Source: an uncultured Puniceicoccaceae bacterium
GTDB lineage: Bacteria > Verrucomicrobiota > Verrucomicrobiia > Opitutales > Coraliomargaritaceae
Length of the DNA stretch: 64,000 bases
Assembly: GCA_964616435.1 (NCBI GenBank)
Contig: CAZTSB010000072.1
Coordinates: forward strand, 18,393-82,392
Reading direction: 5' to 3'
In this document: positions 4,476 through 49,952 of the stretch, piece by piece
Position numbering within the stretch: position 1 is the first letter of the stretch
How the letters are laid out: every line of letters starts with the position of its first letter
The notes under the pieces: model-generated
Database searches by the model: none
What the model was told of the DNA's origin: nothing
The model's input: the letters and a program-made list of their open reading frames with translations, nothing else
Program-made: the position numbers and the translations under genes

Positions 4476-5462
4476 TTACAGACTCCAGTCGAGCATGCGC
4501 TTGATCGGAACGTAAGCCCTTTTGCGGACAGTTTCATCCATCTTGATTTGCGGCGTCATATCACGCAGACAGTCACGCAATTTCGCAATCGTATTCATTT
4601 TCATAAACCGGCAGTTATTGCATGCGCAAGAATCAGTCGGGCCTGCTATAAAAGTTTTATCCGGCACTTCGCGCTGCAGACGATGGATCATGCCCATCTC
4701 AGTCACAATGATAAATTCCGCCGCAGCACTGTCTTTGCAGAAGCCAACCATTTTCTCCGTGCTGCAAACAATATCCGCATTGTCACGCACGGTCTCCACA
4801 CATTCGGGATGGGCAACAATAAGCGCATCGGGAAATTTGAGTTTAAGCGCTTCGATCGCTTGTTGGGTAAACAGCACATGCGCGTAGCAGGAACCAGGCC
4901 AAAGCTGCATTCTGCGCCCGGTCTGCTTGGACACCCATTGACCCAAATTCTGATCTGGGACAAACAGTATTTCACGATCTGCCGGTACTTGCTCAATGAT
5001 CCTTGTCGCATTGCCACTGGTGCAAATCACATCGCTCAATGCCTTCACGGCAGCTGAGCAGTTAATATAGGCAACAACATACACGTTCGGGTTAGCCTCT
5101 TTGTAAGCTGCCAATTTCTCGGCAGGACACGAATCGGACAGCGAGCAACCAGCCTCCATATCCGGCAGAAGCACAACTTTATCCGGATTCACGATCTTGG
5201 CAGTCTCTGCCATAAAGTGTACGCCACAAAAAACAATCACATCGGCATCCGCCTCCGCGGCGCGGTAGGAAAGGCCCAGTGAATCGCCGGTATAATCCGC
5301 CACACGTTGAATTTCATCTACCTGATAATTATGGGCGAGGATCACTGCATTGCGCTCCCGTTTCAAATCCAGCACCTCCTGTTGGATGGCAGACAAAGGC
5401 ACCTCCGCGCCATCGTGAGGAGCAAACACCATCGGTTCGTAGTTTAAGAGCGCAGTTGCCAT
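4476..5462 (-). CDS. nadA: Quinolinate synthase
   Basis: ILAHNYQ, GDSL, FCGVHFMAETAK, AGCSL, YINCSA, CTSGNA, AHPEC, C..MKM. Start placed at ATG 5462. Confidence 0.97.
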   Translation of the reverse strand: MATALLNYEPMVFAPHDGAEVPLSAIQQEVLDLKRERNAVILAHNYQVDEIQRVADYTGDSLGLSYRAAEADADVIVFCGVHFMAETAKIVNPDKVVLLPDMEAGCSLSDSCPAEKLAAYKEANPNVYVVAYINCSAAVKALSDVICTSGNATRIIEQVPADREILFVPDQNLGQWVSKQTGRRMQLWPGSCYAHVLFTQQAIEALKLKFPDALIVAHPECVETVRDNADIVCSTEKMVGFCKDSAAAEFIIVTEMGMIHRLQREVPDKTFIAGPTDSCACNNCRFMKMNTIAKLRDCLRDMTPQIKMDETVRKRAYVPIKRMLDWSL

Positions 5463-5691
5463 AATTTTTGAAAGAAGCACAAAGGTCAGGTGAAGATGCC
5501 TTTAAGTCAAGCAAGCTCAACAGTAATGATCTATGTATCACAGTACGCGTTTAATACATTCGGCAATTGCGGTTTCAAATATTGTCTCAAATGGCCACTA
5601 TGCATTGTGCCAGCATATAGTAACCTGGACTTGACCTAACAGACTTTGCCTTTAACTACTACAACTTAGTTTTTTTACTATCTAAATATTT

Positions 5692-6852
5692 ATGAAAAAA
5701 TGGCGAATCGCGATCCCCTGCTCGGGGCTTGGGCACATCACACGTGGCATTGAAACCTGGACAATGGACATGGGACATGCCCTACACGATCAAGCTGTAG
5801 AAGTCACTGTCTTTAAGGGGGCAGGAGAGTGTCAGCACAGCTGGGAACGTACGATTGGCTGTGTAAAACGTGATTCTAATTTTACAAAAAAGTTGATGGC
5901 GATTCGACCAGGCTTCACGTGGCGTCTCGGCTTGGCAACACCTTACACCTTTGAGCAACTTACGTTCAATTTACGCTTATGGCCTCATCTTTTAGGTGAT
6001 AAATTTGACATCATTCACACTCAGGATCCCCAAATTGCATTGTTTTGTCAAAGATTACGACGACTGGGCTTAACAAAAGCAAAGGTTCTTCTAGCCCATG
6101 GCACAGAAGAGCCGTTTTCGTTTTTAAACAAGTTTGACTATCTGCAACACCTGGCGCCATATCATCGGGATGAGATGCAATCTGCCGGTTGGAGTACACC
6201 TGAGATGTACGCGATTGGAAATTTCATAGATACTGAAAAGTTTCAACCAAGAGACGATAGATCTTTGCGGCATGAGCTTGGGATACCCGATGATGCCTTT
6301 GTCGCTTGTTCGGTGGCCGCAATCAAAAGACACCATAAGCGGATTGATCATCTTCTGAAAGAGTGTTCGCAGATTTCAGATCCCAATTTTCATCTTATCG
6401 TTGCCGGCTCACGCACGTCTGAAACCGATGATTTAATTAATATGGGTCGACAGCTTTTAGGGGAACGGGTACACTTTTTAGTGGATTTCCCTCACCAGCG
6501 TGTCCCGGATATCCACACAGCTGCAGACATCAATGTTCTGTGCTCGCTTAAGGATATGATGCCGATTGCGCTTATTGAAGCATTGAGTAGCGGCTTGCCA
6601 TCGATTACCCATACATATCCCGTAGAAGTCTGGATGATTGGCCAGGGTGGCGATGCCATCGATATGAGTCAGGAAGGCACGCTGGCACAGATGATTACAG
6701 AATATATCAATGATCCAGATAAACTAAAAAGCAAATCTACATTAGCAAGACAGGAAGCAGTACAGCGATTTGCAAGAGATATTATTGTTGAGCAAATTAT
6801 GTCAATGTATGAAGGCATCATGTCCCATCCAAAAAAAGTTGATCATGAATAA
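5692..6852 (+). CDS. Glycosyltransferase family 4 (GT-B)
   Basis: RGIET N-terminus, IIHTQ, GNFIDTEKF, KRID, MPIALIEALSSGLP. Confidence 0.9.
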   Translation: MKKWRIAIPCSGLGHITRGIETWTMDMGHALHDQAVEVTVFKGAGECQHSWERTIGCVKRDSNFTKKLMAIRPGFTWRLGLATPYTFEQLTFNLRLWPHLLGDKFDIIHTQDPQIALFCQRLRRLGLTKAKVLLAHGTEEPFSFLNKFDYLQHLAPYHRDEMQSAGWSTPEMYAIGNFIDTEKFQPRDDRSLRHELGIPDDAFVACSVAAIKRHHKRIDHLLKECSQISDPNFHLIVAGSRTSETDDLINMGRQLLGERVHFLVDFPHQRVPDIHTAADINVLCSLKDMMPIALIEALSSGLPSITHTYPVEVWMIGQGGDAIDMSQEGTLAQMITEYINDPDKLKSKSTLARQEAVQRFARDIIVEQIMSMYEGIMSHPKKVDHE

Positions 6853-7780
6853 CCCAAAAGTTGAAATTAGCGTCGTCATTCCGACATATAATGGCGAAAA
6901 ATACATCGAACAGACCGTGCAATCAGCTCTATCGATTACTAGTCATCCATTAGATATTTTAGTCGTTGATGATGGTTCTACCGACAACACTGCAGAGTTG
7001 ATGAAACCTTATCTTGATCGTGTTCGTTACATACAGAAGGAAAATGGTGGTCCTGCCAGTGCACGTAATCTTGGAGTTAAAGAAGCTTATGGCGAGTTTA
7101 TCGCTTTTCTCGATGGAGATGACTTATGGCAACCGGAAAAGTTTGAAAAGCAAATGCCTTTATTTGATGATCCGGAAGTAGCGCTTGTCTATGCTGAAGG
7201 CCCGGCAATTGATGAAAACAATAATCCCTTGGAGCATGATAGCGGGTTACCTAAGCCTAAAATTAAGGGACAGGTATTTGAACAACTCTTTGCAAATAAT
7301 GTGATACCAACATCGACTGTGATCGCACGGCGGCAAGCCATTCTGGATGCAGGTCTTTTTGATGAAGATCGCAGTCTAATTTCTGTCGAAGACTATGACT
7401 TATGGTTAAGAATCGCAGCCGCTTCCAAATTTGATTATGTTAGTGAACCATTGACACTGTATCGTGTTCACTCGGAAAGCATCAGCAAAAATCATGCAAG
7501 ATCGTACTTTGGTGAAAAAAAAGTTTTAGAAAAGAATAAAGAGCTTTTTGCAAATCGTTTCCCTCAAATTGCCACATCCTGGAATCAGCGTTTGGCAACG
7601 CTTTTTCAGGAATTGGCACAGGAGTATTATACTGGCAATAATCTATCTGAGGCCCGGAAATATTTCCGGGAAAGTCTCAAATACAATTTCTGGCAGCCTA
7701 AGCTATGGATATACATCCTAACCACACTCATGGGGCGTGGTTTTGTAAGTTCGGTACGTCGTCTTAAGGGTACTCATTAA
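6845..7780 (+). CDS. Glycosyltransferase family 2 (GT-A)
   Basis: ISVVIPTYN, VVDDGSTD, NGGPASARNLG, FLDGDD, EDYDLWLR. ATG at 6845 overlaps the end of the GT4 gene. Confidence 0.93.
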   Translation: MNNPKVEISVVIPTYNGEKYIEQTVQSALSITSHPLDILVVDDGSTDNTAELMKPYLDRVRYIQKENGGPASARNLGVKEAYGEFIAFLDGDDLWQPEKFEKQMPLFDDPEVALVYAEGPAIDENNNPLEHDSGLPKPKIKGQVFEQLFANNVIPTSTVIARRQAILDAGLFDEDRSLISVEDYDLWLRIAAASKFDYVSEPLTLYRVHSESISKNHARSYFGEKKVLEKNKELFANRFPQIATSWNQRLATLFQELAQEYYTGNNLSEARKYFRESLKYNFWQPKLWIYILTTLMGRGFVSSVRRLKGTH

Positions 7781-8021
7781 AATCTAATAGCGCGCACAAG
7801 GCGATAAAAGCAGAAGATCGTCTACGAAAGTTGGTGAATTGAAAGCAGTCGATACTTCTGAAGTCATTGCACGACTGGAAAAGAAAGATCCTCGGAGCGA
7901 GTCCCGAGATATTTGAATCTAGGTTGAAATTATAGCTAAGCCCAAAATCATTTATATGTTTAAATGATCTCTTCAATGGATTTTCGATGATTATATTCTC
8001 TGATTTTCTTGATTGCTCCAA

Positions 8022-8050
8022 CGACCTGCCCCCAAAATTAGTACGGACTG
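8022..8050 (+). mobile_element. Possible isolated IS3-family terminal inverted repeat (scar)
   Basis: CGACCTGCCCCCAAAATTAGTAC resembles TGACCTGC(C/T)CCC...TTAG IS3-family ends. Terminal TG is CG here and no transposase is adjacent. Confidence 0.3.
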
Positions 8051-8122
8051 AAATTAGATTACACCCTAATTTGTTGACAAAATACTTGTTGTTTTAAAAG
8101 CCCTGTGCTTAGTAAAACCACT

Positions 8123-8374
8123 ATGACAAAAGATGAAGTCTTTGCAGTTATAAAAAACAACATCCTTGAGATTCTTACTGGGTTGGATTCGGAGAAAGTC
8201 AAGTTTGAGGTCAGTATGAGTGATTTGGGAGCTAACTCGATTGATCGAATGGATGTAGTGATCAAATCCATGGAGGATTTGTCCTTGAAAATACCTCTGA
8301 TTGAATTTGCCAAAGTTGGCAATATTGGCGGACTGGTTGACTTGTTGTACAGTAAGTTGTCCGAAGGTAAGTAA
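8123..8374 (+). CDS. acpK: Stand-alone donor acyl carrier protein of a beta-branching cassette (AcpK-like)
   Basis: DLGANSIDR phosphopantetheine motif (GANS rather than GxDS), typical of AcpK-type donor ACPs; first gene of the cassette. Confidence 0.88.
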   Translation: MTKDEVFAVIKNNILEILTGLDSEKVKFEVSMSDLGANSIDRMDVVIKSMEDLSLKIPLIEFAKVGNIGGLVDLLYSKLSEGK

Positions 8375-8389
8375 GAATAGATTAATCGA

Positions 8390-9697
8390 ATGGTTCAGAC
8401 TGATATTCAGGATATTGAACGACCCTCCGTCAGACCAATTTCTATTACTGGTATGGGAATTCTTTGTGCTATCGGCCATGACCTTGCGTCAATGACTCAG
8501 GCGCTCCAAACGGGAAAGAGCGGTATTTGTGCGTTAGAAAATACGGATTTGCCGGTATCGGTGGCCGGATGGCTGAAGGATTTTGATGCTTTTTCTGCCT
8601 TTGAACGTTTGGATGACTTGCCCAAAGCCTTGCTTGAAAGAGCACGGACTGCTGTGAGGCGTGTTTCCGGAGCCGTGCAAACGGCTGCCGCCGCTGCCTT
8701 GCAAGCCTGGCAACAGGCCGGACTGTATGCTGCTGACCTGCAATCAGAACGTGTCGGTCTGGTCATCGGTGGAAGCAATCTCAGTAGTCGGCTCAGTTAC
8801 GATCAGCACCGCCGCTATCAGGATGACTTTACCTATATCTCGGCCAGTTACGGTTTGCAGTGCTTTGATACCGATCTGGTCGGCGTCCTCAGCGAGATCT
8901 TTCAAATCCAGGGGCCGGGTTTTACGGTAGGCGGCGCCTCGGCTAGCGGCAATATGGCGCTGATCCAGGGGCAAATGCTGATTCAAAGTGGCTGGGTGGA
9001 TCGTTGCCTGGTCGTTGGAGCAATGGCCGATGTCTCTCCGGCGCAGGTGCAAGCCTGGCAGAATATGGGCGCGATGGGTGGGCACAACTTTTCTGCCGAA
9101 CAGGCCTGCCGCCCTTTCGATGCAAAGCGCAACGGCTTTATCTATGGTCAGGGCTGCGGCGCTGTAATGCTGGAACACCCGGATCATGCTCGCAATCGCA
9201 ATGCGGAAATCCAGGCAACGTTCAAAGGTAGTGCTGTGGTGCTGGACGGTAACCGCTTGTCCGATCCCAGCGCCGAGGGCGAAGCGCGAGCCATGCAGCA
9301 GGCCCTGGATCGTTCGGGTCTGGTTGCTGCCGATATCGACTATATCAATACCCACGGTACCTCGTCTGTGCTGGGCGACGCCACGGAAGTGGAAGCGATC
9401 AAACAGGTTTTTCAATCCAGCCTGGATGGGCTGCAGATCAACGCTACCAAAGGCTTGACGGGCCATTGCCTCTATGCTGCCGGGATGGTCGAAGCGATTG
9501 CTACGATATTGCAGATGCAGCAAGGCTTTATACACCCGAACAAGAATCTCGAAACCCCGCTTGATAACGAGTTGCCCTTCGCAGGGGCCAGCGCCGAGCC
9601 GGTCAGGTTATCCGCGGCGGTGAGCAACTCTTTCGGCTTTGGCGGAATCAATACTTCCGTCGTTCTAACGAATAATTCTAACGAATCGAACGACTAA
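8390..9697 (+). CDS. pksF: Non-condensing, malonyl-decarboxylating ketosynthase KS0 (PksF-like)
   Basis: Active site GGASASG (Cys->Ser), INTHGT, GHCL, SNSFGFGG. Confidence 0.9.
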   Translation: MVQTDIQDIERPSVRPISITGMGILCAIGHDLASMTQALQTGKSGICALENTDLPVSVAGWLKDFDAFSAFERLDDLPKALLERARTAVRRVSGAVQTAAAAALQAWQQAGLYAADLQSERVGLVIGGSNLSSRLSYDQHRRYQDDFTYISASYGLQCFDTDLVGVLSEIFQIQGPGFTVGGASASGNMALIQGQMLIQSGWVDRCLVVGAMADVSPAQVQAWQNMGAMGGHNFSAEQACRPFDAKRNGFIYGQGCGAVMLEHPDHARNRNAEIQATFKGSAVVLDGNRLSDPSAEGEARAMQQALDRSGLVAADIDYINTHGTSSVLGDATEVEAIKQVFQSSLDGLQINATKGLTGHCLYAAGMVEAIATILQMQQGFIHPNKNLETPLDNELPFAGASAEPVRLSAAVSNSFGFGGINTSVVLTNNSNESND

Positions 9698-9717
9698 ACC
9701 AAACAAAGGCAAAAACG

Positions 9718-10989
9718 ATGGCAACCTATCTATTTCCCGGACAGGGATCACAGCGCAAAGGCATGGGCAAGGGCTTGTTCGAAGCCTTCCCTGAACTTAC
9801 TTCCGAAGCCGATGAAATCCTCGGCTACTCCATTCGTGATTTATGCCTGAAAGACCCGAAGCAGAAACTGGTTCAGACGCAGTATACGCAGCCGGCGCTG
9901 TATGTGGTCAATGCGCTATCGTATCAGCAAAAGCTGAAAGAAGTTGATCAGGCGCCCGATTTCGTTGCCGGTCACAGCCTGGGTGAGTACAATGCTTTGC
10001 AGGCCAGCGGCGCAATCAGTTTCGCCGATGGATTGAAACTGGTACAAAAGCGCGGCGAGTTGATGAGTCAGGCTCCCGAAGGCGCCATGGCAGCGATTGT
10101 GGGACTCAAGGCGGACGCGGTCAAAGAGGTGCTGCAAAACGAAGGTCTGGATGGCGTTGATATTGCCAATGACAACGCGCCGACCCAGATTGTGATTTCA
10201 GGGCCACCGGAAGACTTGTCCAAATCCCAGGTGGCCTTTGAAGCAAGCGGCGGCATGTTTATACCGCTGAACACCAGCGGCGCCTTTCACTCCCGCTACA
10301 TGGCGGACGCGAAAACTGAGTTTGGTGAATTCCTAAAAGACTTCAAGTTCGACAAGTTGAAGATTCCGGTGATTGCCAACCTGAGTGCCCAGCCCTATAA
10401 AAACATACAGATCAAAAAAAACTTAAGAGAGCAGATCACCGGCACAGTGCAATGGACTCGGAGCATACAGTATCTGCTGGAGCAGGGCGAAACCGAATTT
10501 GAAGAGTTGGGAGTCGGCGATGTACTGGCCAAGCTGGTGACCAAAATCCGCAAGGATAGCCCGGTCATAGTGGAAGCTGCTGTCGATCTTGCGAAAACAA
10601 AGGCCAATACTGAGCCTGCAAGGCCAGAGGCTGAAGTTGAACTCGCTAGCGTTGAAGCGGCAACCGAGGTAGCTGTCGAGCCGGAACCGATTGCCGTTGA
10701 ATCGAAACCGGCAACATCCAAACCCTCTTCGTCGGCGAACACCGCGGCAGCGGCTAAGGCCAGCCACGCGGAGCGAATGGCTGCGGATCGTAAACGGGTC
10801 GAAGAGTGGAATCAGACGTATCCAGTTGGCATGAAAGTTACCGTTGACGGCTACGAGGGTATGATGGAAACGCGTACCGAAGCCATGCTGATATTCGGTC
10901 ACCGCGCGGCGATATATCTGAAGGATTACAACGGTTACTTCCATTTGGTGGATGTAAGCCCAATCAAAGAAGGAGCTGCTGCCGTATGA
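9718..10989 (+). CDS. Trans-acting malonyl-CoA:ACP acyltransferase (PksC-like) with Ala/Glu/Pro-rich linker and extra C-terminal domain
   Basis: FPGQGSQ, TQYTQPALY, GHSLGE, AFHS (malonyl-specific); about 140 extra C-terminal residues. Confidence 0.92.
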   Translation: MATYLFPGQGSQRKGMGKGLFEAFPELTSEADEILGYSIRDLCLKDPKQKLVQTQYTQPALYVVNALSYQQKLKEVDQAPDFVAGHSLGEYNALQASGAISFADGLKLVQKRGELMSQAPEGAMAAIVGLKADAVKEVLQNEGLDGVDIANDNAPTQIVISGPPEDLSKSQVAFEASGGMFIPLNTSGAFHSRYMADAKTEFGEFLKDFKFDKLKIPVIANLSAQPYKNIQIKKNLREQITGTVQWTRSIQYLLEQGETEFEELGVGDVLAKLVTKIRKDSPVIVEAAVDLAKTKANTEPARPEAEVELASVEAATEVAVEPEPIAVESKPATSKPSSSANTAAAAKASHAERMAADRKRVEEWNQTYPVGMKVTVDGYEGMMETRTEAMLIFGHRAAIYLKDYNGYFHLVDVSPIKEGAAAV

Positions 10990-12239
10990 ATCCGGTTGGC
11001 ATCGAAGCCATGAACGCCTTCTGTGGCAGTGCACGTATGGATGTGCGTGCCTTGGCAGAGCATCGCAATCTGGATACGCAGCGCTTTGACAACTTGCTGA
11101 TGAGTGAGAAGACGGTGCCTTTGCCTTTTGAGGATCCGGTCAGCATGGGTGTCAACGCTGCCAAGCCAATTATTGACGCTCTGAGCCCGGAGGCAAAGAA
11201 TCGCATTGAGTTGATAATTACCTGCACCGAGTCGGCTTTTGACTTTGGCAAGTCAATGAGCACTTACTTTAACAAACTGCTGGGTCTGAGTCGTAACTGC
11301 CGCCTGTTCGAGCTGAAGAACGCCTGTTATTCGGGTACGGCTGGCTTGCAGATGGCGATCAACTTCATTCTGTCGCAGGCCGCGCCGGGTGCGAAAGCGC
11401 TGGTGATTGCGACTGATATTGCCCGCTTTATGATTGCCGAGGGAGGTGACGCGCTCACGGAGGACTGGTCCTTTGCCGAGCCCAGCAGTGGTGCAGGTGC
11501 CGTAGCAATGTTGGTCAGCGATCAGCCCTATGTGTTTCAGGCGGATGTCGGAGCCAACGGTTACTACGGCTACGAGGTGATGGATACCTGTCGCCCGATT
11601 CCGGACAGTGAGGCGGGCGATGCGGATTTGTCGCTATTGTCCTATCTTGACTGCTGTGAAAACAGCTACCGCGAGTACGAAAAGCGCATTGCCGATGTCG
11701 ATTACGCCACCAGCTTTGGCTACCTGGCCTTTCATACGCCTTTTGGCGGTATGATCCATGGAGCCCATCGCACAATGATGCGCAAATTTACCGAGATAAA
11801 GCAGGCGGATGCGATTCAGGCAGACTTTGATCGCCGAGTGCAGCCGGGACTGAGCTATTGCCAGCGTATCGGCAACATCATGGGCGCGACTACCGCGTTG
11901 TCGCTGCTGAGTACGATCGTCCATGGCGATTTTGGCAGTCCGCAGCGTATTGGCTGTTTTTCCTACGGCTCAGGTTGCTGCTCAGAATTTTACAGCGGCG
12001 TGGCTACTCAGGAAGGTCAGAAGCGTTTACGGGCCATGGATTTCGACGCTCAGCTGGATCGGCGATACTTGATGAGTATGGACGAGTACGATTCGCTCCT
12101 GACCAATAGCAGTGTTGTTCAATTCGGTACCCGCAACGTTGTTCTGGGCCGGGACTTCCTGCCGCAGGCGCGGCAGTCCGGCTATCTGTATCTCAAGGAA
12201 ATTAAGGAATATCACCGCGAGTATGAATGGGAGGCGTGA
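10986..12239 (+). CDS. pksG: HMG-CoA synthase-like beta-branching enzyme (HCS, PksG-like)
   Basis: TES..DFGKS, ELKNACYSGT (catalytic Cys), MDTCRP, FHTPF, FSYGSG. Confidence 0.94.
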   Translation: MNPVGIEAMNAFCGSARMDVRALAEHRNLDTQRFDNLLMSEKTVPLPFEDPVSMGVNAAKPIIDALSPEAKNRIELIITCTESAFDFGKSMSTYFNKLLGLSRNCRLFELKNACYSGTAGLQMAINFILSQAAPGAKALVIATDIARFMIAEGGDALTEDWSFAEPSSGAGAVAMLVSDQPYVFQADVGANGYYGYEVMDTCRPIPDSEAGDADLSLLSYLDCCENSYREYEKRIADVDYATSFGYLAFHTPFGGMIHGAHRTMMRKFTEIKQADAIQADFDRRVQPGLSYCQRIGNIMGATTALSLLSTIVHGDFGSPQRIGCFSYGSGCCSEFYSGVATQEGQKRLRAMDFDAQLDRRYLMSMDEYDSLLTNSSVVQFGTRNVVLGRDFLPQARQSGYLYLKEIKEYHREYEWEA

Positions 12240-12255
12240 ACATGTCTAAAAACCA

Positions 12256-13017
12256 ATGAACTACGACACGCTGAAAGTACGCTTTGAGGACGAGATTTGC
12301 CGACTGCAATTTCACCGTCCGGAGGCAAAAAATACCATCAACGACCAGTTGATCGATGAATGCCGTCAGGTTGTAGAAGTCTGTCACCGGCAGGCTAAAG
12401 TTCTGGTGCTCGAAGGGCTGCCCGAAGTCTTTTGCTTTGGTGCTGATTTTGACTCCATTGCTCAGCAGGTCTCCTCGAGAACTGCTTCAGTTTCGAGTCC
12501 GGAGCCCATGTACGACCTGTGGCTTGAACTGGCTAGCGGGCCCTTTGTCACTGTGGCCCATGTGCGCGGTCAGGCCAACGCGGGAGGAATCGGTTTTGTT
12601 GCCGCCTGTGATCTGGTTCTGGCGGATAAAAAGGCTCAGTTTAGTTTATCAGAGTTGCTGTTTGGGCTGATGCCTGCCTGTGTGCTGCCGTTTTTGGTCC
12701 GTCGCACGGGCTTTCAAAAAGCGCATGCAATGACTTTGATGACCAAGCCGGTGGCGGTTGAAGAGGCGCATCGCTGGGGGCTGGTCGACATGTTTTCCGA
12801 TGACAGCGAATCCTTGCTGCGGCAGCATTTGCTGCGACTTCGGTACCTGAACAAAACTGCGATCAAGCGCTATAAGAGTTACATGAACCAACTTGATGGC
12901 AGTCTTGATGAGGCCAAGCCGAAAGCGCTTGCTGCCAACCTTGAAGTGTTCAACGATAAAGACAATTTAACCAAAATCGCCCGTTATGTTGAGACCGGTC
13001 AATTCCCCTGGGAGTAG
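12256..13017 (+). CDS. pksH: Enoyl-CoA hydratase ECH1 (dehydratase, PksH-like)
   Basis: FCFGADF, NAGGIGFVAACD, FSLSELLFGLMPACV, C-terminal GQFPWE. Confidence 0.92.
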   Translation: MNYDTLKVRFEDEICRLQFHRPEAKNTINDQLIDECRQVVEVCHRQAKVLVLEGLPEVFCFGADFDSIAQQVSSRTASVSSPEPMYDLWLELASGPFVTVAHVRGQANAGGIGFVAACDLVLADKKAQFSLSELLFGLMPACVLPFLVRRTGFQKAHAMTLMTKPVAVEEAHRWGLVDMFSDDSESLLRQHLLRLRYLNKTAIKRYKSYMNQLDGSLDEAKPKALAANLEVFNDKDNLTKIARYVETGQFPWE

Positions 13018-13117
13018 GTAAAGATGCGGTCCAAAGGATGAACAAGATTGGAGATCGAATTTAATCAACCATCAAGCTACATCCTTAACCAATACAATTA
13101 ACTACTAAGAACCAAAA

Positions 13118-16100
13118 ATGATAAAACCATACTCCGAAGAATATCCAACAGGCATTTTCACCAGTACGTTTACCGGGAATGAAGCTTTTTTAGCCGACCA
13201 CGTTATTCAGGGGAGAAAAGTGCTTCCCGGAATGGCGTACCTGGAGATGGCACGCGCCGCGGTTGCCGCCTCTGTTTCCATGGACGACGAGTATCTGATC
13301 CGTTTAAGCGACAGCGTCTTTATTCAGCCATTGATAGTCGTGGATGAATGCTCCGTCGATGTGAAGATATATCCGGGCCGCAAGGGTGAATTCGGGATCG
13401 AAGTCATTACCGGGCAGGGCGTCCACTTTCAAAGCAAGGCGACGATTGAGGTCAGGCCGGAGCAAATGCCTGCGAGCCTAGACATCGCAGCTCTCACTGA
13501 GCAATGCATGGTCGCCGGACCCGACAAAACAGAGTTCTACGCCAGTTTCAAAAAGCTGGGTGTTGACTATGGCCCTAGCCATCAAGGTATCCGGGAAATC
13601 CGCATTGGCGAAACCTGTGTGCTCGCGAGTCTGTTCTTGCCTGGTTCCAGCAGACGCGGTATGGATCTGGATCCCGGCATGCTGGACAGTGTTATCCAAA
13701 GCGGCGCTGTTATGGCCAGCGATCAGGATAAGGTCAGCGTGCCCTTTGCGATTAAAAGCGTTACGATCTATGGTCCGTTAACAGATACCGCCTATGCTTG
13801 CCTTGTCCAATCCGAGCAGGGACAGGGATTTGATTATACGGTTGCCGATGAAGCCGGCGCAGTTAAGGTCATTATCAATGGATTTGTTGCTCGTGAGTTA
13901 AGCTTTGCCGGCAAGGATGATCTGGTCTTCTACCAGCCGCAGTGGCAGGACGATGCGCCGGCTGAAGGTGATGAAGATAGTGAAGCGGTCACCGTGATTG
14001 AGGAGCAGTCCAGCTATGAGAAGCTGGTGAAAGCGGTCTTCAAAACGGCGCAAAAATTGATCCAGGATAAGGTGGATAAGCACACGCTTGAAGTACATCT
14101 ACCGGTTGATAAGCCCGCGTGGCACGGCATCATCGGTCTGCTCAAAACAATCCGGATCGAGTATCCTAAGATCAGTTGCAAACTAAAGATCGGCGAGCGC
14201 TACCGGAAGTTAAGCTACAGCGCCGTTGACGTGTCAGTCACCGACGGAGTAGACGTCTGGGCTGACAACAAAACGATCCTGATCACCGGTGGTATGGGTG
14301 GCCTGGGCCGTTTGTTTACCGAAGATATCGTCCGAAAAAGCAAGGGTTGCACACTGATTCTGGTCGGTCGAAGCGAACTGGATGATTCGAAAAAAGAGAC
14401 GCTCAAGGATCTGGAAGCCGATGGCGCCACGGTTGTTTATGAGCCGTGCGATATCAGCAAAAAGTCAGCCGTGACGGCTCTGATTGAGAAGTATCCGCAG
14501 ATCAATGGCGTGATCCACGGTTCTGGTGTCATTCGGGATAACTATATTGCCAACAAAACGATGGGCGAAATCGATCAGGTGCTCGCTCCCAAAGTAAAGG
14601 GGCTCGACTATCTGGATCAAGCGACGGCTGAACTTAAGCTGGACTATTTCATGGTATTTTCTTCGATGGCTGGCACGCTGGGGAACGCGGGTCAAGCCGA
14701 CTATTCGGCCGCAAATGCCTACATGGATGCCTACATTCATCACCGCGCTGCACAGGTGGAGAAGAAAGAGCGTCACGGCAAAAGCATCAGCATCAACTGG
14801 CCGCTATGGGAAAGCGAAGGCATGCAGGTCGATGAAGCGATCCGGCAGAATATGCTGCAGGTCTTTAAAATAAAGCCACTGCCGGCTGAATACGGACTTC
14901 AGGTTTTGAGACAGATGCTTGCCTTCGATTATCCGCAGATGTTGGTTCTGTTTGGCAATCCCGGGGCCATTACCACGCTGTTTGAACGGATGAACTCAGA
15001 GCGTAAGCAGGCGCCCAGGAAAACAGTCGTGGTTGAATCCGATAAGCTGATTCGTGAAATCCTGCAGGAAATTAAGATCAAGGCAGGTGAGCAGCTTAAG
15101 ATGGAGCCGGACCAGTTCGACGAGGAAGCCGACTGGAGTGACTTTGGCTTTGATTCCATCCTGTTATCCAGCTTTGTGAATGAGTTTAATGCGGAATTCA
15201 ATTTGGAACTGATGCCAACAGCTTTGTTTGAAGCGACCAACATGCAGTTGTTAAGCGAGCATCTGGCTGAGAACTATGCGGACCAGATGGCGCAAAAGCT
15301 GGGCCTGGAAGGTACGCCTGCGGTCGAACTGTCCACCGGGGAGCCTGAAGTCCGGGAGCCTGATATGCAGAAGATCAGTGCCTTTGCCCAGAGCTTCAAA
15401 AAGGCCTACAAGTCCAGCGTTGCCTATCGGGATGAAGATGTGGCCATTGTCGGAATCAGCTGTCGAATCGCCGGTGCCCGCAATCCGGAGGAGTTCTGGC
15501 AAATGCTCATCGACGAACGTGATATGATCACTGAGATACCCAGTGATCGTTGGAACTGGCAGGCCTATCCCGAGAGCGCCAAATGGGGCTCGTTCATTGA
15601 CGGAGTTGCCGAATTTGACCCCTTGTTTTTTAGCATCTCGCCAGCAGAGGCGCGCTATATGGCCCCGGAACAGCGCCTGCTGATGCAATCGGTCTGGGAG
15701 TGCCTGGAACATGCGGGCTGTAGCGGGGATGCCACAAAGGGAACGGATACCGGTATCTTTGTCGGCATAGGGCCCAGCGGTTACTCTCAACTGCTCAGAG
15801 GTATGCCGGTCGAAGCCTATTCCTCAACCGGCATGGTGCCTTCGGTCGGGCCGAACCGTATCAGCTATCTGATGGACTGGAATGGACCAAGCGAGCCGAT
15901 TGAGACGGCCTGCAGCAGTTCACTGGTTGCTGTACACCGTGCCGTCGAAGCGATCCGGGCGGGGCACTGCAGTCAGGCGATTGCCGGAGGCGTGAACCTG
16001 TTGCTCACGTCGGAGAGTTATATCAGCTTCACCAAAGCAGGCATGCTCTGTGAGGACGGACGCTGCAAGACTTTTTCGGACAAGGCCAATGGCTATGTCC

Positions 16101-17167
16101 GGGGTGAAGGGATCGGTATTATTTTGCTCAAGCCCTTGAAGGCAGCTATCCGGGACGGGAACGTTATTCACGCTCTGGTTAAGGGCACTGCCGAGAACCA
16201 CGGCGGACGAACCAACTCACTGACGGCGCCCAACCCGAAATCGCAGTCGGCGGTCATTCGCAAGGCGCTTGCAGATGCGGACATGGACTTTGGCCGTGTC
16301 AGCTACATTGAATGCCACGGCACCGGCACTGAGTTGGGTGACCCGGTCGAAATCGAAGGCTTGAAAACCGTGGCTATGCAACTGGCAGACTCCGGCAGCA
16401 CGCAAGTGTGTAAACTGGGGAGCATCAAATCCAACATCGGTCACCTGGAAATGGCGGCAGGTGTTGTCGGATTGATCAAGGTCGTGCTACAGATGCAGCA
16501 TCAGAAGATAGTGAAAAGCCTGCATTGCGAACAGCTAAACCCTTACATTGATCTTAAAAATACGCCTTTTGAAGTCGCGCAGGCAGCCAGCGACTGGGAG
16601 GTCGAACCGGGGCAGACCCGAGTTGCCGGTGTTAGTAGCTTCGGTTTTGGCGGCGTCAATTCCCACGTTATTATCGAAGAGTTTAAAGCGCCGGTCCCGG
16701 CCGAGGACGAAGCAGAGGAGTCTGGACCGGATGGGCAGTCGCAACTACTGATTCTATCCGCCCGAACGGAGCAAAGTCTGATAGATTATGTTGCACAGTA
16801 CCCAAGCTTCATTAAAACCCTGCCCCGGCAGTCAAACACATTAAGACGCGTGGCCTACACCTTGCAAATGGGTCGCTCCGAGATGCAGGAACGCGTGGTC
16901 TTCATTGCCAAATCGCTGGATGAGTGGGGCAAACAGCTGGATGCCTTCCTGGAAGAAAAGGGTAAGGTGAAAAGCCGTAATGTCTACCGTGGCACCGTGA
17001 AATCAAGTGGATCGGATAACCTGGAAATCGGAGATACCGCGGCGGGCCGGGACTACATCCAACGGTTAATCGACACTCAGGAACATGGCAAGCTCGCTGA
17101 GCTGTGGGTAAAAGGTAGCAAGATCGACTGGCAGGCTTTGTATGCGTCATCGAACGTTCAACGTTGA
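13118..17167 (+). CDS. AT-less type I PKS protein with domain order DH-KR-ACP-KS(+flanking subdomain)
   Basis: DH: DHVIQGRKVLPG and MLDSVIQ. KR: ITGGMGGLG, GVIRD, FSSMAG..GQADYSAAN. ACP: FGFDSI. KS: ETACSSS, ECHGTGT, NIGHLE, SSFGFGG. Ends LAELWVKGSKIDWQALY. No AT or TE motif. Confidence 0.93.
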   Translation: MIKPYSEEYPTGIFTSTFTGNEAFLADHVIQGRKVLPGMAYLEMARAAVAASVSMDDEYLIRLSDSVFIQPLIVVDECSVDVKIYPGRKGEFGIEVITGQGVHFQSKATIEVRPEQMPASLDIAALTEQCMVAGPDKTEFYASFKKLGVDYGPSHQGIREIRIGETCVLASLFLPGSSRRGMDLDPGMLDSVIQSGAVMASDQDKVSVPFAIKSVTIYGPLTDTAYACLVQSEQGQGFDYTVADEAGAVKVIINGFVARELSFAGKDDLVFYQPQWQDDAPAEGDEDSEAVTVIEEQSSYEKLVKAVFKTAQKLIQDKVDKHTLEVHLPVDKPAWHGIIGLLKTIRIEYPKISCKLKIGERYRKLSYSAVDVSVTDGVDVWADNKTILITGGMGGLGRLFTEDIVRKSKGCTLILVGRSELDDSKKETLKDLEADGATVVYEPCDISKKSAVTALIEKYPQINGVIHGSGVIRDNYIANKTMGEIDQVLAPKVKGLDYLDQATAELKLDYFMVFSSMAGTLGNAGQADYSAANAYMDAYIHHRAAQVEKKERHGKSISINWPLWESEGMQVDEAIRQNMLQVFKIKPLPAEYGLQVLRQMLAFDYPQMLVLFGNPGAITTLFERMNSERKQAPRKTVVVESDKLIREILQEIKIKAGEQLKMEPDQFDEEADWSDFGFDSILLSSFVNEFNAEFNLELMPTALFEATNMQLLSEHLAENYADQMAQKLGLEGTPAVELSTGEPEVREPDMQKISAFAQSFKKAYKSSVAYRDEDVAIVGISCRIAGARNPEEFWQMLIDERDMITEIPSDRWNWQAYPESAKWGSFIDGVAEFDPLFFSISPAEARYMAPEQRLLMQSVWECLEHAGCSGDATKGTDTGIFVGIGPSGYSQLLRGMPVEAYSSTGMVPSVGPNRISYLMDWNGPSEPIETACSSSLVAVHRAVEAIRAGHCSQAIAGGVNLLLTSESYISFTKAGMLCEDGRCKTFSDKANGYVRGEGIGIILLKPLKAAIRDGNVIHALVKGTAENHGGRTNSLTAPNPKSQSAVIRKALADADMDFGRVSYIECHGTGTELGDPVEIEGLKTVAMQLADSGSTQVCKLGSIKSNIGHLEMAAGVVGLIKVVLQMQHQKIVKSLHCEQLNPYIDLKNTPFEVAQAASDWEVEPGQTRVAGVSSFGFGGVNSHVIIEEFKAPVPAEDEAEESGPDGQSQLLILSARTEQSLIDYVAQYPSFIKTLPRQSNTLRRVAYTLQMGRSEMQERVVFIAKSLDEWGKQLDAFLEEKGKVKSRNVYRGTVKSSGSDNLEIGDTAAGRDYIQRLIDTQEHGKLAELWVKGSKIDWQALYASSNVQR

Positions 17168-17201
17168 ACATCGCGATCTGTGGATAAAACTATCCGAATC
17201 T

Positions 17202-17942
17202 ATGCAAGACGTCATTAAAATCGAGTCCGTAACACCTGAGATCGTGCTGATCACGATGCAGGATGAAGCGCATAAAAACACCTTTTCCGAGGCTCTGATT
17301 CGCGGTCTGGTAAATGCCTTTGAAACGATCGGCGCCAATCCGAGTTATAAAGTCGTCATCCTCACCGGCTATGGCCCTTATTTTGCCAGTGGCGGTACCC
17401 AGGAAGGCTTGTTGGCTCTGGCTGGTGGTCAGGGGAAGTTTACCGATATCAACATTTACAGTCTGGCACTGGATTGTCCGATTCCAGTGATTTCGGCGAT
17501 GCAGGGTCATGGAATTGGCGGCGGCTTTGTCATGGGTCTGTTCGCTGACTTCGTCCTGCTGGGGCGGGAGAGTGTTTATACCACCAACTTCATGAAATAC
17601 GGTTTCACACCCGGGATGGGTGCGACCTACATCGTGCCGCAGAAGCTGGGCATCACTCTGGGCCATGAGATGCTTCTGAACGCTCAGACTTATCGTGGAG
17701 AAGTGCTCAAACAGCGCGGCGTCCCCTTTCCGGTCTATCCCAGAAATGAGGTGCTCTCACAGGCTCGTCAACTGGCCGAAGAACTGGCGGAAAAACCACG
17801 CATATCCCTGGTAACGCTAAAGACACATCTGGTGGCGCCGCTCAGGCAGGCGTTGCCTGCCTTCATTGAGCAGGAAGTCGCGATGCACGAGAAGACCTTC
17901 CACCAACCCGAAGTCAGGGAACGAATCAAAGACTTGTTTTGA
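17202..17942 (+). CDS. pksI: Enoyl-CoA hydratase ECH2 (decarboxylase, PksI-like)
   Basis: MQD..KNTFS, FASGGTQEGL, MQGHGIGGG, NFMKYGFTPGMGAT, EVAMHEKTF. Start at ATG 17202. Confidence 0.93.
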   Translation: MQDVIKIESVTPEIVLITMQDEAHKNTFSEALIRGLVNAFETIGANPSYKVVILTGYGPYFASGGTQEGLLALAGGQGKFTDINIYSLALDCPIPVISAMQGHGIGGGFVMGLFADFVLLGRESVYTTNFMKYGFTPGMGATYIVPQKLGITLGHEMLLNAQTYRGEVLKQRGVPFPVYPRNEVLSQARQLAEELAEKPRISLVTLKTHLVAPLRQALPAFIEQEVAMHEKTFHQPEVRERIKDLF

Positions 17943-18092
17943 CAGTATCTGACTAGCTTTTACCTGCCAGAAAAGTATTCTGCTAAAGTTGCGGTTTTAT
18001 TAGCTTCCATGCCGTCTTCAGTGCGTAATTAGAGACTTTAAACTCTTCTTATTTGCTTGAGACTATTTTCTGGAGTTTCACAGTTGTTTATC

Positions 18093-18326
18093 ATGATTGA
18101 GTTGAGTGTAGACATATTTTTTCTTTTGTATCTTGGATGTGGGTTTTCATTGATACTGTCACTGTGGTTTTACTACGACTGGAAACAGGGGCATCAATAC
18201 GAGGCACAGCGTTTCAGGGTGATTTATCATTGTATCAAATGCAGCCACATTTATACCGGACCCTATCGCAGTGAAGAATCCGATTGCCCTCAGTGTGGAT
18301 TTACAAATGGTCGACTGCGCTTCTGA
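18093..18326 (+). CDS. Small membrane-anchored zinc-ribbon protein
   Basis: N-terminal hydrophobic helix, then CIKC...CPQCG. Confidence 0.7.
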   Translation: MIELSVDIFFLLYLGCGFSLILSLWFYYDWKQGHQYEAQRFRVIYHCIKCSHIYTGPYRSEESDCPQCGFTNGRLRF

Positions 18327-18378
18327 ACGGAGCGATCTCATTGCATAGTACAATCTGGGTTAATACATTTCTAATTTT

Positions 18379-19926
18379 ATGGCAGATCATATCGCAGTAC
18401 TCGACTTTGGCTCCCAATACACGCAGGTGATTGCACGCCGCATCCGCGAGGCAAATGTGCTTTCTCGCATTTATCCTTATAATACACAGGCCGGCGTGCT
18501 CGAAGAGGCGGGCGCCAAAGGCATTATTTTATCCGGTGGTCCGGCCTCAGTCCTGGTTGAAGATGCGCCGCTGCCGGATAAGGGTGTATTTGAAATGGGT
18601 CTTCCGATGCTCGGTATTTGTTACGGCGAGCAATTGATGGCGCATCTGCTTGGTGGACGGGTAGGGAAGAGCACGGAACGTGAGTTTGGCCACGGCACCC
18701 TGGAGATTCGGACAAAGGGTAAGTTGTTCGATGGACTTCCCGATACTCTTAGTGTCTGGAACTCTCATGGTGACCGGCTGGAGCAACTTCCCGAAGGTTT
18801 CGAAGCGATTGCAGCTACGGAGAATTCGCCGTATGCGACCATCCAGGACTCGCAACGGCAGTTTTACGGGATGCAATTTCATCCGGAGGTCGCTCACTCG
18901 GAGATGGGCACTGAGATCATTGCGAACTTTCTGTTCAAGGTATGCGGCTGTGAAACCAATTGGTCGATGGCCGACTTTATTGAACAAAGTATTGAGAAGA
19001 TCAAGGATGCCGTTGGTGAGGAATGTGTGATTCTGGGGCTTTCCGGTGGGGTGGATTCATCAGTTGCCGCTGCGCTGATCCATAAAGCCATAGGTACACA
19101 GCTCACCTGCGTCTTTGTTGACAATGGGCTGCTGCGCCTGCACGAGCGCGAGCAGGTGGAGAAGCTCTACAGTGACCACTTCCATCTGGATGTGCGCGTT
19201 GCAGACAAAGGAAAGCTTTTTCTGGAGCGGCTTGATGGCGTTTCGGATCCTGAAACCAAACGTAAAATCATAGGCAACACCTTCGTCGAGGTCTTTGATG
19301 AGGCAGTCAGCCAGTTGAAGGAAAAGGGCAATTATACCTTTCTGGCGCAGGGAACTCTGTATTCGGACGTGATTGAATCCGTTGCGATTGATGGTAGTCC
19401 GGCGGCGCTGATCAAGAGCCATCACAATGTCGGAGGGCTTCCGGAAAAGATGGATCTAAAGCTTCTCGAACCGCTTCGCGAGTTATTCAAAGACGAAGTG
19501 CGGGAACTGGGCTCACAGCTAGGCCTGCCGAAAGAAGTTGTCTGGCGCCAGCCATTCCCCGGTCCCGGTCTGGGTGTGCGTGTTATGGGACCCATACGGG
19601 AGCCAGACCTTAAAGTGTTACGCAAGGCTGATGCGATTTTGCAGGAAGAGATGCTGGCCGCGGATCTGTACTACAAAGTGTGGCAATCCTTCTGTGTATT
19701 TTTACCTGTAAAGACAGTCGGCGTGATGGGTGACGAACGCACCTACGAAAACGTCATTGCATTGCGCATAGTCGAGAGTATCGATGCGATGACCGCCGAC
19801 TGGGCACGTGTCCCATACGATCTTTTGCGAAAGATATCCGGCAGGATTATTAATGAAGTTGCGGGGTGTAATCGTGTGGTGCTGGACATCAGTTCCAAAC
19901 CACCCAGCACGATTGAATGGGAATAG
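18379..19926 (+). CDS. guaA: GMP synthase (glutamine-hydrolysing)
   Basis: [44 protein letters not shown]. Confidence 0.99.
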
Positions 19927-30078: not shown

Positions 30079-30524
30079 GAGAACCTTTAAACTTTACAGT
30101 CGCAGTGCACGTGGATGGTTTTGAGAAGGGGGATGTGCAATCAATTCGCTTTTCCAAGGTGCAACGTGGAATATATAGAACAGGAAGAGTCTCTGGTATC
30201 GTCGAATGGACTTACGGGAGAGAAGCTGCCAATTGGTATATTACTGGTGATGGTAAAATTAGGGAGTATTGGTATTCTTGGTAGATTAATAGACTCCAGC
30301 AATTTAACTTCCTTTGCATAACAAGCGGAAGTAGATCAATCATATACCCGTGGCGCTTTCTGGCTTCGATAAGGTCGCTATTATGAGACTGTTTTCTTGA
30401 GTAGTGTGGTCAAACAGGGGTATATGATGACTATTCCTGAACGTTCTGGAAAAGAAAACAGGGCAACATATGCGGTCGCTATCGTGCTTTTGCCTCAGGG
30501 TTTGAAGAAGATATAAAGACTCCA

Positions 30525-30607
30525 AAATCTTATGCGCATAAAATTAAATTCTATAAGCATAAAATAAATTTTTGTAGGCATAAAAATAAATCCTATGCGC
30601 ACAAAAT
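30525..30607. repeat. Four degenerate 20-22 bp tandem repeats
   Basis: AAATCTTATGCGCATAAAATT / AAATTCTATAAGCATAAAAT / AAATTTTTGTAGGCATAAAAAT / AAATCCTATGCGCACAAAAT. Confidence 0.7.
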
Positions 30608-30810
30608 AGAGACTTTATAATCATAGGCAAAAAAGCCAAATCTACTGAAATAGAATCCGCAAACATTTGAGACTGAGCAGACAGTTCCACGACTTTTAAG
30701 AAAAGCGATTCGACACTATGACACCCCTACACCAAAAAGGAAAAATGAATACCAATCAGACGAAGAGCATTTGCAGAATTCGATAAGATTGGGAACATTT
30801 GAAACTCAAC

Positions 30811-30915
30811 CCAGAACCAGACGAGCTAGTCAATGCGAGATATCGCGCCAGAACTTCTGAAAAGCATTTGCACCTTGCAGCCCACAGGCTCGCATGACTA
30901 CTCTCTACTTTCGGC
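30811..30915 (+). mobile_element. attC-like integron cassette recombination site
   Basis: R'' CCAGAAC, 5 nt, L'' GAGCTAGT ... L' ACTACTC, 5 nt, R' TTTCGGC. Stem GAG(C)TAGTCA(A)TGCGAG/CTCGCATGACTACTC has two extrahelical bases. Confidence 0.75.
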
Positions 30916-30924
30916 AAAAATAAA

Positions 30925-31317: not shown

Positions 31318-31324
31318 AATGGAA

Positions 31325-31395
31325 GCAGTACCAGTCGGAGTGATTCAACTCCGTTACGCTGCGCTCCACTACGTGATCATCCTCTAACGGTCTAC
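31325..31395 (+). mobile_element. Degenerate attC-like site
   Basis: R'' GCAGTAC, 5 nt, L'' GGAGTGAT ... L' ATCATCC, 6 nt, R' GGTCTAC; next ATG 10 bp downstream. Confidence 0.6.
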
Positions 31396-31405
31396 AGAAA
31401 TAATT

Positions 31406-32188: not shown

Positions 32189-32224
32189 ACAACGCCTTTG
32201 GCGCGCCTACCTTTGACGTACTGA
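32170..32224 (+). mobile_element. Short degenerate attC-like site
   Basis: R'' GGCCAAC, 5 nt, L'' AGGATAGA, CGCC-TTT-GGCG apex, L' CCTACCT, 5 nt, R' GTACTGA; the brnA stop lies inside it. Confidence 0.6.
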
Positions 32225-49239: not shown

Positions 49240-49241
49240 GA

Positions 49242-49931: not shown

Positions 49932-49952
49932 GAGTATGTAGCGTTTGGGATT

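Follow-up and report, generated by a model that had tools for sequence, protein, structure and literature searches.

Is a single polyketide synthase (PKS) module wrapped in a complete beta-branching cassette a pathway in its own right, or a fragment of a larger one? The question is raised by seven genes at positions 8123 to 17942 of a 64,000-nucleotide stretch of DNA (the window) from an uncultured Puniceicoccaceae bacterium. An earlier note, made from the letters of the window, had offered both readings: a self-contained minimal pathway, or the accessory part of a split cluster whose large PKS genes lie elsewhere. The window lies on contig C72 of the source genome, G000, and C115, C91 and other contig numbers given without a genome denote further contigs of G000. 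Sequence comparison makes it very probable that the block is the detached accessory part of a trans-acyltransferase (trans-AT) PKS spread over three loci. Cassette and acyltransferase (AT) stand apart from the megasynthase genes in the same genome (C72, C115 and C91). The block likely serves the line on C115 and does not act alone, because C115 carries a PKS with six ketosynthase (KS) domains, no AT and the only Trp-flagged acyl carrier protein (ACP), and C91 carries helper genes.

The cassette and its PKS subunit

The genes of the block are as follows, with the score and the curated cut-off for each NCBIfam model.

8123-8374, + strand: donor ACP, AcpK type, with GANS motif (Ser39); NCBIfam PRK07117, 89.4 bits, cut-off 79
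8390-9697, + strand: decarboxylating ketosynthase KS0, PksF type; PRK07103, 498.9, cut-off 445
9718-10989, + strand: free-standing malonyl transferase (trans-AT); TIGR00128, 339, cut-off 261
10986-12239, + strand: HMG-ACP synthase (HCS), PksG/CurD type; PDB PksG, E=1.8e-189, and CurD, 3e-188
12256-13017, + strand: ECH1 dehydratase; PRK07112, 410.5, cut-off 250
13118-17167, + strand: PKS subunit of 1349 aa, dehydratase (DH)-ketoreductase (KR)-ACP-KS; assigned by Pfam, homologues, KS tree and ACP profile
17202-17942, + strand: ECH2 decarboxylase; PRK07110, 376.9, cut-off 215

The positions of the open reading frames and their family matches confirm the seven genes and their common strand, and the catalytic motifs described as intact in the earlier note were found in all seven proteins. 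The intergenic gaps are -4 to 100 bp. ECH2 likely starts at the ATG at 17202; its longest open reading frame begins at 17142. The beta-branching cassette is complete, with donor ACP, KS0, HCS, ECH1 and ECH2 and their catalytic residues present. In KS0, Ser184 replaces Cys and His322 and His359 are kept. The trans-AT has the motifs GHSLG (Ser87) and GAFHS, HCS has Glu82, Cys114 and His250, and the PKS subunit has DH His28/Asp190, KR Tyr529, ACP Ser680 and KS Cys932/His1067/His1109. Five genes (ACP, KS0, AT, ECH1, ECH2) exceed the matching NCBIfam curated cut-offs. HCS fell under every NCBIfam cut-off tried, these belonging to generic HMG-CoA synthase models (best TIGR01835, 219 vs 360). It is 68-77% identical to the HCS of the best 80 of 432 related loci, the set used for the locus comparisons below, and the donor ACP is 65% identical to the ACP of locus L006. 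The trans-AT has a C-terminal extra domain of ~75 aa (window 10750-10989), found in many of the 80 related loci and in one Atlas cluster (TM 0.85). Atlas look-alikes of this domain are small unnamed proteins, many of them from phage.

The PKS subunit straddles two modules, holding the rear half of the first and the front half of the second. About 100 of its best 120 matches share its length and domain order, with identities of 47-68%, in Kordia, Lysobacter, Aliikangiella, Pseudoalteromonas and others. It is the orthologue of subunit D in ~75-kb clusters of G041 (Kordia algicida), G043 (Lysobacter) and G045. An orthologue was present in 23/80 HCS loci; 22/23 had another modular KS within the stretch compared and the 23rd ends at a contig edge. 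Relatives sharing this type of subunit have 16-26 matches to it per genome. A tree of 45 KS domains was made by a quick method, in which KS4 and KS7 formed long branches whose placement is not trusted (KSs are numbered in the order proposed below, the window KS being KS5). The window KS grouped with those of the DH-KR-ACP-KS orthologues (69-76% identity, SH-aLRT 100), on a branch that is not long (0.23 vs 0.14-0.26). Judged by these homologues, the window PKS gene is a subunit of a larger line and not a mini-PKS. The seven-gene order, with a PKS gene between ECH1 and ECH2, was seen in none of the 80 related loci. Of 4 loci on metagenome contigs, only L108 (D, metallo-beta-lactamase, HCS, ECH1) has a true orthologue, and none repeats the arrangement of G000. 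G433 was considered as a second small system and rejected, as it proved to be cis-AT/nonribosomal peptide synthetase (NRPS).

The predicted acceptor ACP and the proposed three-locus line

Searching G000 with the window proteins (tblastn) identified six further modular KS domains, all on C115, where C115:6963-35290 is a 28-kb AT-less PKS cluster upstream of mraZ. Its genes are listed here (cMT, C-methyltransferase; ER, enoylreductase; C, condensation domain).

C115, PKS1, 3634 aa: KS-DH-KR-cMT-ACP-KS-ACP-KS-DH
C115, PKS2, 1200 aa: KR-ACP-KS
C115, between PKS2 and PKS3: CMAS-fold gene, DUF1365 gene and free 79-aa ACP
C115, PKS3, 3640 aa: KS-DH-KR-cMT-ACP-ER-KS-ACP-C
C115, starting 27 bp after PKS3: CdsA-like gene

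No AT, HCS or ECH domain was found in the C115 cluster. PF00698 is absent from all four PKS proteins; the free AT is in the window and a hydrolase-type AT is on C91. The latter locus (C91:1851-8358) holds the acyl hydrolase-type AT, a metallo-beta-lactamase fold, a PfaD-like trans-ER and a 1131-aa CHAT/NTPase gene; we take these helpers to be PksB-, PksD- and ER-like. Homologues of the 1131-aa gene adjoin cassettes in L048, L062 and L064 and the hydrolase in G431. A phosphopantetheinyl transferase (PPTase) gene is on C97. None of the three loci reaches a contig end, each being bordered by host genes on either side, and relatives' PKS proteins and a KS profile found no PKS fragment on any other G000 contig or contig end. 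For both the rsmH flank of C115 and the guaA flank of C72, the closest relatives are G015 and G017, and the depths of C72 and C115 in metagenome X1 are ~9.6 and 9.8. The self-contained pathway of the earlier note thus gives way to its alternative: the genome has a large AT-less PKS with a Trp-flag ACP on C115, a finding that the note itself had named as fatal to the self-contained reading, and a PPTase on C97, and the megasynthase, the C91 helpers and the relatives and depth shared by C72 and C115 all support a split cluster.

PF00550 gave ten ACP matches in G000, one of which has Trp at Ser+6. This is ACP2 of PKS1 (GLDSILGIEW, Ser2655), in a KR-less KS-ACP module. Branching modules of lasonolide are assigned by this Trp (PMC9600693). 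ACP5a and ACP5b of the virginiamycin branching module have Phe at the flag position (PMC10006238), and ACPs were therefore scored with the flag column omitted, using a profile of 38 Trp-flag and 418 unflagged ACPs. When left out in turn, 38/38 flagged ACPs and 4 of the first 250 unflagged ones scored >0. PKS1 ACP2 scored +25.9, the window module ACP, which sits behind an intact KR, -62.4, and the free ACP -9.4. The other four in-line ACPs scored -31 to -96, and all seven other ACPs of the system -9 to -96. KS3, which follows the flagged ACP2, fell in a group (SH-aLRT 99) with four KSs of relatives, of which three come after Trp-flag ACPs and the fourth after an unflagged one. KS2 grouped with KSs after cMT modules, and KS6 loosely (91) with KSs after branching modules. 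The acceptor ACP for the cassette is predicted to be on C115, outside the window.

The cassette chemistry follows established PksF/G/H/I-type enzymology. The AT would load malonyl onto all ACPs, and KS0 would decarboxylate malonyl-AcpK to acetyl-AcpK. HCS would add this to the beta-keto chain on PKS1 ACP2 (Ser2655), and ECH1 and ECH2 would leave a methyl (or exomethylene) branch. PKS1 (KS1-DH-KR-cMT-ACP, KS2 with the Trp-flagged ACP, KS3-DH) would hand the chain to PKS2 (KR-ACP-KS4, non-elongating). The chain would then pass to the window protein (DH-KR-ACP-KS5), the free ACP and PKS3 (KS6-DH-KR-cMT-ACP-ER, a likely non-elongating KS7, ACP-C). The starter would thus be extended five times and the chain would bear three methyl branches, modules 1-2 giving R-CH=C(Me)-C(Me)=CH-. 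Some of the double bonds would be saturated by the trans-ER of C91, with the acyl hydrolase as proofreader. Release by the terminal C domain would form an ester, possibly with a glycerolipid backbone that the extra CdsA activates.

KS4 and KS7 are likely non-elongating because Gln replaces the first His in KS4 of PKS2 and the HGTGT motif is altered in KS7 of PKS3. PKS subunits dock by four-helix ends. The C-tail of PKS1 resembles the docking ends of relatives' subunit A (z 3.0-14.5) and the N-end of PKS2 those of subunit B (z 5.0-8.0). The order PKS1-PKS2-window protein-free ACP-PKS3 is the likeliest, though a little short of even odds: gene order and docking ends back the step from PKS1 to PKS2, and we infer the later order. 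The free ACP must bridge to PKS3, either from KS5 of the window protein or from KS4, because PKS3 starts with a KS and no other protein ends in an ACP. It could also be a starter carrier, since it is closest to acyl-loading ACPs (Asl1650 and the N-terminal ACP of Pks13). In PKS3, ~3 tandem copies of a ~70-aa KS-DH linker, 83% alike, precede the DH (C115:25378-25952).

Several observations weigh against the three-locus line as drawn. Neither end of the window protein has a docking helix, and the C115 proteins would also make a closed line without it, PKS1-PKS2-free ACP-PKS3. Phe stands at the flag position of the window ACP and of the free ACP alike, and the Trp flag is predictive of branching but not decisive. 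The GC content at third codon positions (GC3) of the flagged-ACP block is 0.35-0.37 vs ~0.6 in the cassette, so that cassette and flagged ACP may have different donors. All reads are from one sample (four runs, labelled biofilm metagenome, possibly the source of the assembly). Genes may be missing, because the short-read assembly (2.2 Mb, 0.03% contamination) is 97.2% complete in 120 contigs. The lipid end is suggested by gene neighbourhood, and the combination was found in no other genome.

These points have to be set against what other arrangements would require. That the seven genes act alone with fatty-acid synthase, methyl-branching a fatty acyl chain, would agree with their tight co-orientation and with a gene order not seen in the 80 related loci. 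It is nevertheless very hard to credit in a genome with a six-KS AT-less line that needs exactly such an AT and cassette. The window ACP scores -62 for branching behind its intact KR, the protein ends at a KS with no ACP or release domain (thioesterase (TE) or C) after it, and its orthologues are subunits of large lines. It is also rather unlikely, though a good deal easier to defend, that the cassette serves C115 while the window PKS is a passenger or works elsewhere. KS4 would then pass the chain to the free ACP for tailoring by the DUF1365 and CMAS-like proteins, after four extensions. This matches the gene order of C115, where ACP2-KS3-DH, PKS2, DUF1365, free ACP and KS6 all have low GC3 (0.35-0.40; CMAS-like 0.45). 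In relatives the window-type protein comes after a KS-DH-ending subunit without a docking helix, and G000 has no such subunit. The window ACP is also somewhat more diverged, at 0.64-0.70 to its three closest orthologues vs 0.74-0.86 among them. Yet the gene is whole and retains all catalytic residues, the branch of its KS is of ordinary length, and 6/9 of its variants are synonymous. Moreover, KS4 with Gln for His cannot elongate, so a DH-bearing next subunit fits dehydration across two modules, which is the usual arrangement.

The line could also be larger, with more PKS genes on an unassembled or unbinned contig. We consider this improbable, even though the assembly is of short reads (120 contigs), a kind that breaks at large PKS genes containing duplications (PMC7157528), and relatives have 16-26 subunit matches per genome and ~75-kb clusters. 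All three loci are flanked by host genes within contigs, no other PKS fragment was found in G000, and the known parts can form a full line. Two suspicious contig-end fragments were rejected as signs of a missing locus, as both proved native: an AMP ligase on C47 (74-82%) and a UfaD-like fragment on C74 (78%).

The chain end and the lipid-enzyme genes

A methyl-branched lipid, already guessed at in the earlier note, is a possible product, as suggested by the DUF1365, CMAS-like and CdsA-like genes of C115 together with the terminal C domain. Transfer onto a CdsA-activated glycerolipid backbone is the chain end we prefer, with some reserve. The C domain retains HHxxxD (HHIIFDA), and only two close homologues, both C-terminal and 34-35% identical, were found among 1.84 billion representatives. 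The only PF00975 match over the cut-off in G000 is a 271-aa esterase on C75. The CdsA-like protein keeps the CdsA motifs, and the native CdsA is on C110. The DUF1365 protein (PF07103, E=1.5e-62) retains the 18 invariant columns of 11 sequences.

UfaO, a DUF1365 protein, converts a methyl-branched conjugated diene with O2 to a furan (PMC7380195). A furan glycerolipid is accordingly conceivable, though in our view improbable. The SAM (S-adenosylmethionine) and HCS methyls would give a 3,4-dimethyl diene, DUF1365 and O2 would convert it to a dimethylfuran on the free ACP, the C domain would esterify this to a glycerol-phosphate backbone, and the second CdsA, with the two glycosyltransferases (GTs) described below, would complete the furan glycerolipid. 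In this proposal the set would stand in for cfa/ufaO genes kept by relatives and apparently lost in G000. Loci L130-L136 of genus relatives have native ufaD-like, DUF1365, cfa, DUF1295 and desaturase genes, so the genus may make furan fatty acids. DUF1365 is present in 18/22 genus genomes and a CMAS-family gene in 21/22, and the sole copies found in G000 are those in the PKS cluster. The G000 DUF1365 is 31-36% identical to the native ones of the genus, which are 57-84% identical to one another. All this, with the degenerate CMAS-fold protein and the second CdsA, would agree with a furan or branched acyl chain made by the PKS and placed in a glycerolipid.

Other observations bear on the furan, most of them against it. 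The DUF1365 protein has Phe where 9/10 others have His and one has Tyr. The CMAS-like protein (PF02353, E 3e-11) has no canonical SAM motifs (DFNGLCG for ELGCGWG; AIDILDC for SIEMFEH), and this degenerate protein is the only one in G000 to match the CMAS family, to which the SAM methylases UfaM and FufM belong. The UfaD-like C-terminal fragment at the start of C74 is 27-29% identical to relatives' DUF1365-linked genes and 78% to another G017 gene. A native-type UfaD-like fragment thus remains on C74, and the native genes could be among the missing ~3% of the genome. The pairing of a cMT module with a following branching module also occurs in DUF-SH clusters without DUF1365. None of the 80 HCS loci has DUF1365, CMAS-like or CdsA-like genes within 10 kb. 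Matches on plasmids were distant (CdsA-like <=46%, DUF1365 <=34%, 20 listed each), and six neighbourhoods from the DUF1365 plasmid search were ordinary ufa/cfa-type operons with no PKS. Five genomes with related cassettes each gave a single, ordinary match to the CdsA-like protein, and none was seen on PKS or cassette contigs. In the open-licence literature searched, judged by titles and abstracts, no trans-AT PKS or PKS cluster with CdsA, DUF1365 or furan was found.

A freely released polyketide, an ester or lactone for defence or signalling with the lipid genes as passengers or minor tailoring genes, is a serious possibility that we hold somewhat short of probable. It is supported by lasonolide, for which cyclisation and release by terminal C domains have been proposed (PMC9600693). 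The missing SAM motifs of the CMAS-like protein and the alpha-methyl-then-beta-branch pair in DUF-SH clusters without DUF1365 point the same way, as does a candidate exporter set on C31 that was not found in 5/5 relatives. The set (C31:806-5884) has TetR, MMPL, LolA-like and outer-membrane genes, bears a distant resemblance to export genes in the Kordia and Lysobacter clusters, and is a possible exporter; its MMPL is the gene searched for in the 5 relatives. On the other side, the DUF1365, CMAS-like and free ACP genes are wedged among the PKS genes with overlapping stop and start codons, and the CdsA-like gene follows PKS3 by 27 bp with intact motifs, despite the native CdsA on C110. In addition, no obvious hydroxyl would be left for ring closure if every DH works, and 4/4 listed DUF1365 variants are synonymous.

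Setting, origin and comparison with known systems

Upstream of the cassette are two further genes, possible members of the system.

5692-6852, + strand: GT4 glycosyltransferase; Pfam PF00534, GC3 0.42
6848-7780, + strand: GT2 glycosyltransferase; Pfam PF00535, GC3 0.34

Both are co-oriented with the cassette, GT2 ending 342 bp before it, and GT2 had no match at E<=1e-40 in 22/22 genus genomes. The block had been described as inserted among housekeeping genes, from nadA to guaA. The two GT genes (5692-7780) in fact stand between nadA and the cassette. The locus is also a synteny break and not a clean insertion: groEL directly precedes a zinc-ribbon gene and guaA in the two closest relatives. 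These two are 2/6 of the relatives' loci compared; the rest have other genes before the guaA group. C115 likewise lies at a synteny break, relatives having an M16 peptidase before mraZ in 4/7 loci (the other 3 end at a contig edge); in G000 the M16 peptidase gene is at window 38402-41011. X1 contigs span 7857-13508 and 14756-19502 with no change in depth, which shows that the junction to guaA did not arise in assembly, although this bridging is not independent, as X1 may be the source sample of the assembly. Window 7830-8070, upstream of the cassette, has loose contig ends and one 237-bp skip, and it shares short matches with five other contigs, which hints at a small dispersed repeat. Predicted promoters and terminators in 5400-8500 were about as numerous as expected by chance (8 vs 7.5; 2 vs 2.4). 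Elsewhere on the contig, window 30100-33000, after purH, has a GC of 39-42%, short membrane open reading frames (GC3 0.24-0.28) and long non-coding gaps, and 47053-50453 (- strand) holds three low-GC3 genes with prepilin-type N-termini. Outside the window, at the contig start (C72:69-4525), we presume a Cas9-like gene (1073 aa) with Cas1- and Cas2-like genes after it.

The polyketide line is, on sequence evidence, a lineage-specific mosaic that was not found in the 22 genus relatives. HCS was found neither in these 22 nor in 400 genomes of the order. The 22 had FabF-type KS matches only and no trans-ER. In the phylum, 16/400 genomes had a modular KS match, the best at 60% and none at 69-76% (4 candidates scored per genome). 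Among the genomes compared, the gammaproteobacterial G431 is the best match for AcpK (65%), KS0 (57%), AT (66%), HCS (77%) and ECH1 (70%), and also for the C91 acyl hydrolase (53%) and 1131-aa gene (45%). The C72 and C91 accessory loci likely came from one cluster, because these seven genes match G431 best. The trans-ER also has its highest identity there (76% over 243 aa, on a G431 contig). The PKS genes of G431 were rejected as a counterpart of C115, as their architecture is different. On C115, no compared protein exceeds ~67% identity to any segment and the best matches shift along its length. GC3 drops from ~0.55 to 0.36 and then rises, and a 3.4-kb DH-KR-cMT stretch is duplicated at 81%. 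Exchange of module blocks is a known mode of trans-AT evolution (PMC7930024).

Strain variants were taken as the 40 best supported of 145 and of 142 rows at the two loci, 31 and 25 of which lie inside genes. Most of these are synonymous (20/31 and 16/25; 22.5% expected; pN/pS ~0.16), which points to purifying selection on both loci. The window PKS gene has 6/9 synonymous variants and the DUF1365 gene 4/4 listed. Fragmented clusters are common in symbionts (PMC5698493). The coding density of ~0.88 (a crude open reading frame count) is like that of relatives' loci (0.82-0.92), so a degraded symbiont genome is not indicated.

The system had been ranked as the window's best candidate for an undescribed one. 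The detached-cassette arrangement is already known, and it is the combination of parts that is new as far as searched. Producers of pateamine and mycalamide have cassette loci detached from the megasynthase genes, with HCS/ECH cassette and trans-AT in a separate locus that in mycalamide also holds a PKS module (PMC7157528). G000 is far smaller (7 KS), has no NRPS adenylation module and no thioesterase, and its detached piece is a split DH-KR-ACP-KS subunit instead of a loading module; any host association of G000 would be conjecture, the run label being biofilm metagenome and the coding density, ~0.88, like that of relatives. The cassettes of bacillaene and curacin (AcpK, PksF, PksG, PksH, PksI; CurD) share the five functions and residues, with HCS at E~1e-189. 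In G000 the single predicted acceptor ACP is in another locus and the helpers are in a third. Lasonolide, from a verrucomicrobial sponge symbiont, has a trans-AT line, HCS cassette, trans-ER, acyl hydrolase and terminal C domain in common with G000, but a single large repeated cluster and a macrolide product, and the excerpts of that paper describe no DUF1365 or CdsA (PMC9600693).

The DUF-SH clusters of Kordia algicida, Lysobacter, Aliikangiella and marine Gammaproteobacteria (G041, G043, G045) are alike in their DH-KR-ACP-KS subunit (KS 69-76%), which adjoins an HCS cassette, in HCS (~70%), in A/B-type docking ends and in a cMT module followed by a branching module. The DUF-SH didomain has been described (PMC8479088, PMC3870968). 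Its families, PF09924 and PF01212, are present in G041 and G045 and neither was found in the PKS proteins of G000, which has no aminotransferase partner, in-cis ECH or ACP-KS-ACP-TE protein, and 7 KS vs ~13-15. G000 is not a member of this family because the DUF-SH and TE parts are missing; its line ends in ER-KS-ACP-C, with DUF1365, CMAS-like and CdsA-like genes. G041:C1:2398705-2482200, G045:C28:122493-196378 and G043:C14:36934-107938 are orphan clusters of a widespread DUF-SH trans-AT family, with repeated in-cis ECH triplets and tandem Trp-flag ACPs. The family is predicted to make multiply methyl-branched, sulfur-bearing polyenes, and no product was found for it in the literature searched; the excerpts of the cuniculene papers (PMC9323603, PMC10734526) contain no cluster map that could tie the Kordia cluster to that compound. 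The furan fatty acid pathway (UfaM/UfaD/UfaO/FufM) shares DUF1365 (UfaO family) and a CMAS-fold gene, and modules 1-2 would give a UfaO-type diene; the known pathway uses phospholipid-bound 18:1, SAM methylases and a desaturase (PMC7380195). The G000 genes lie inside a PKS cluster, and their CMAS-fold protein has degenerate SAM motifs.

A detached block that looked self-contained illustrates how cluster calls at the level of a window can mislead. The proposed line is compact (~45 kb, 2% of the genome, seven KS) and small enough for heterologous rebuilding. Should the lipid reading be right, furan or methyl-branched glycerolipids would be made by a PKS, a DUF1365 enzyme and a CdsA would be seen with an assembly line for the first time, as far as searched, and a C domain would serve as lipid acyltransferase. 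Otherwise this would still be a clear example of one pathway divided among three loci in a genome whose coding density is not markedly reduced.

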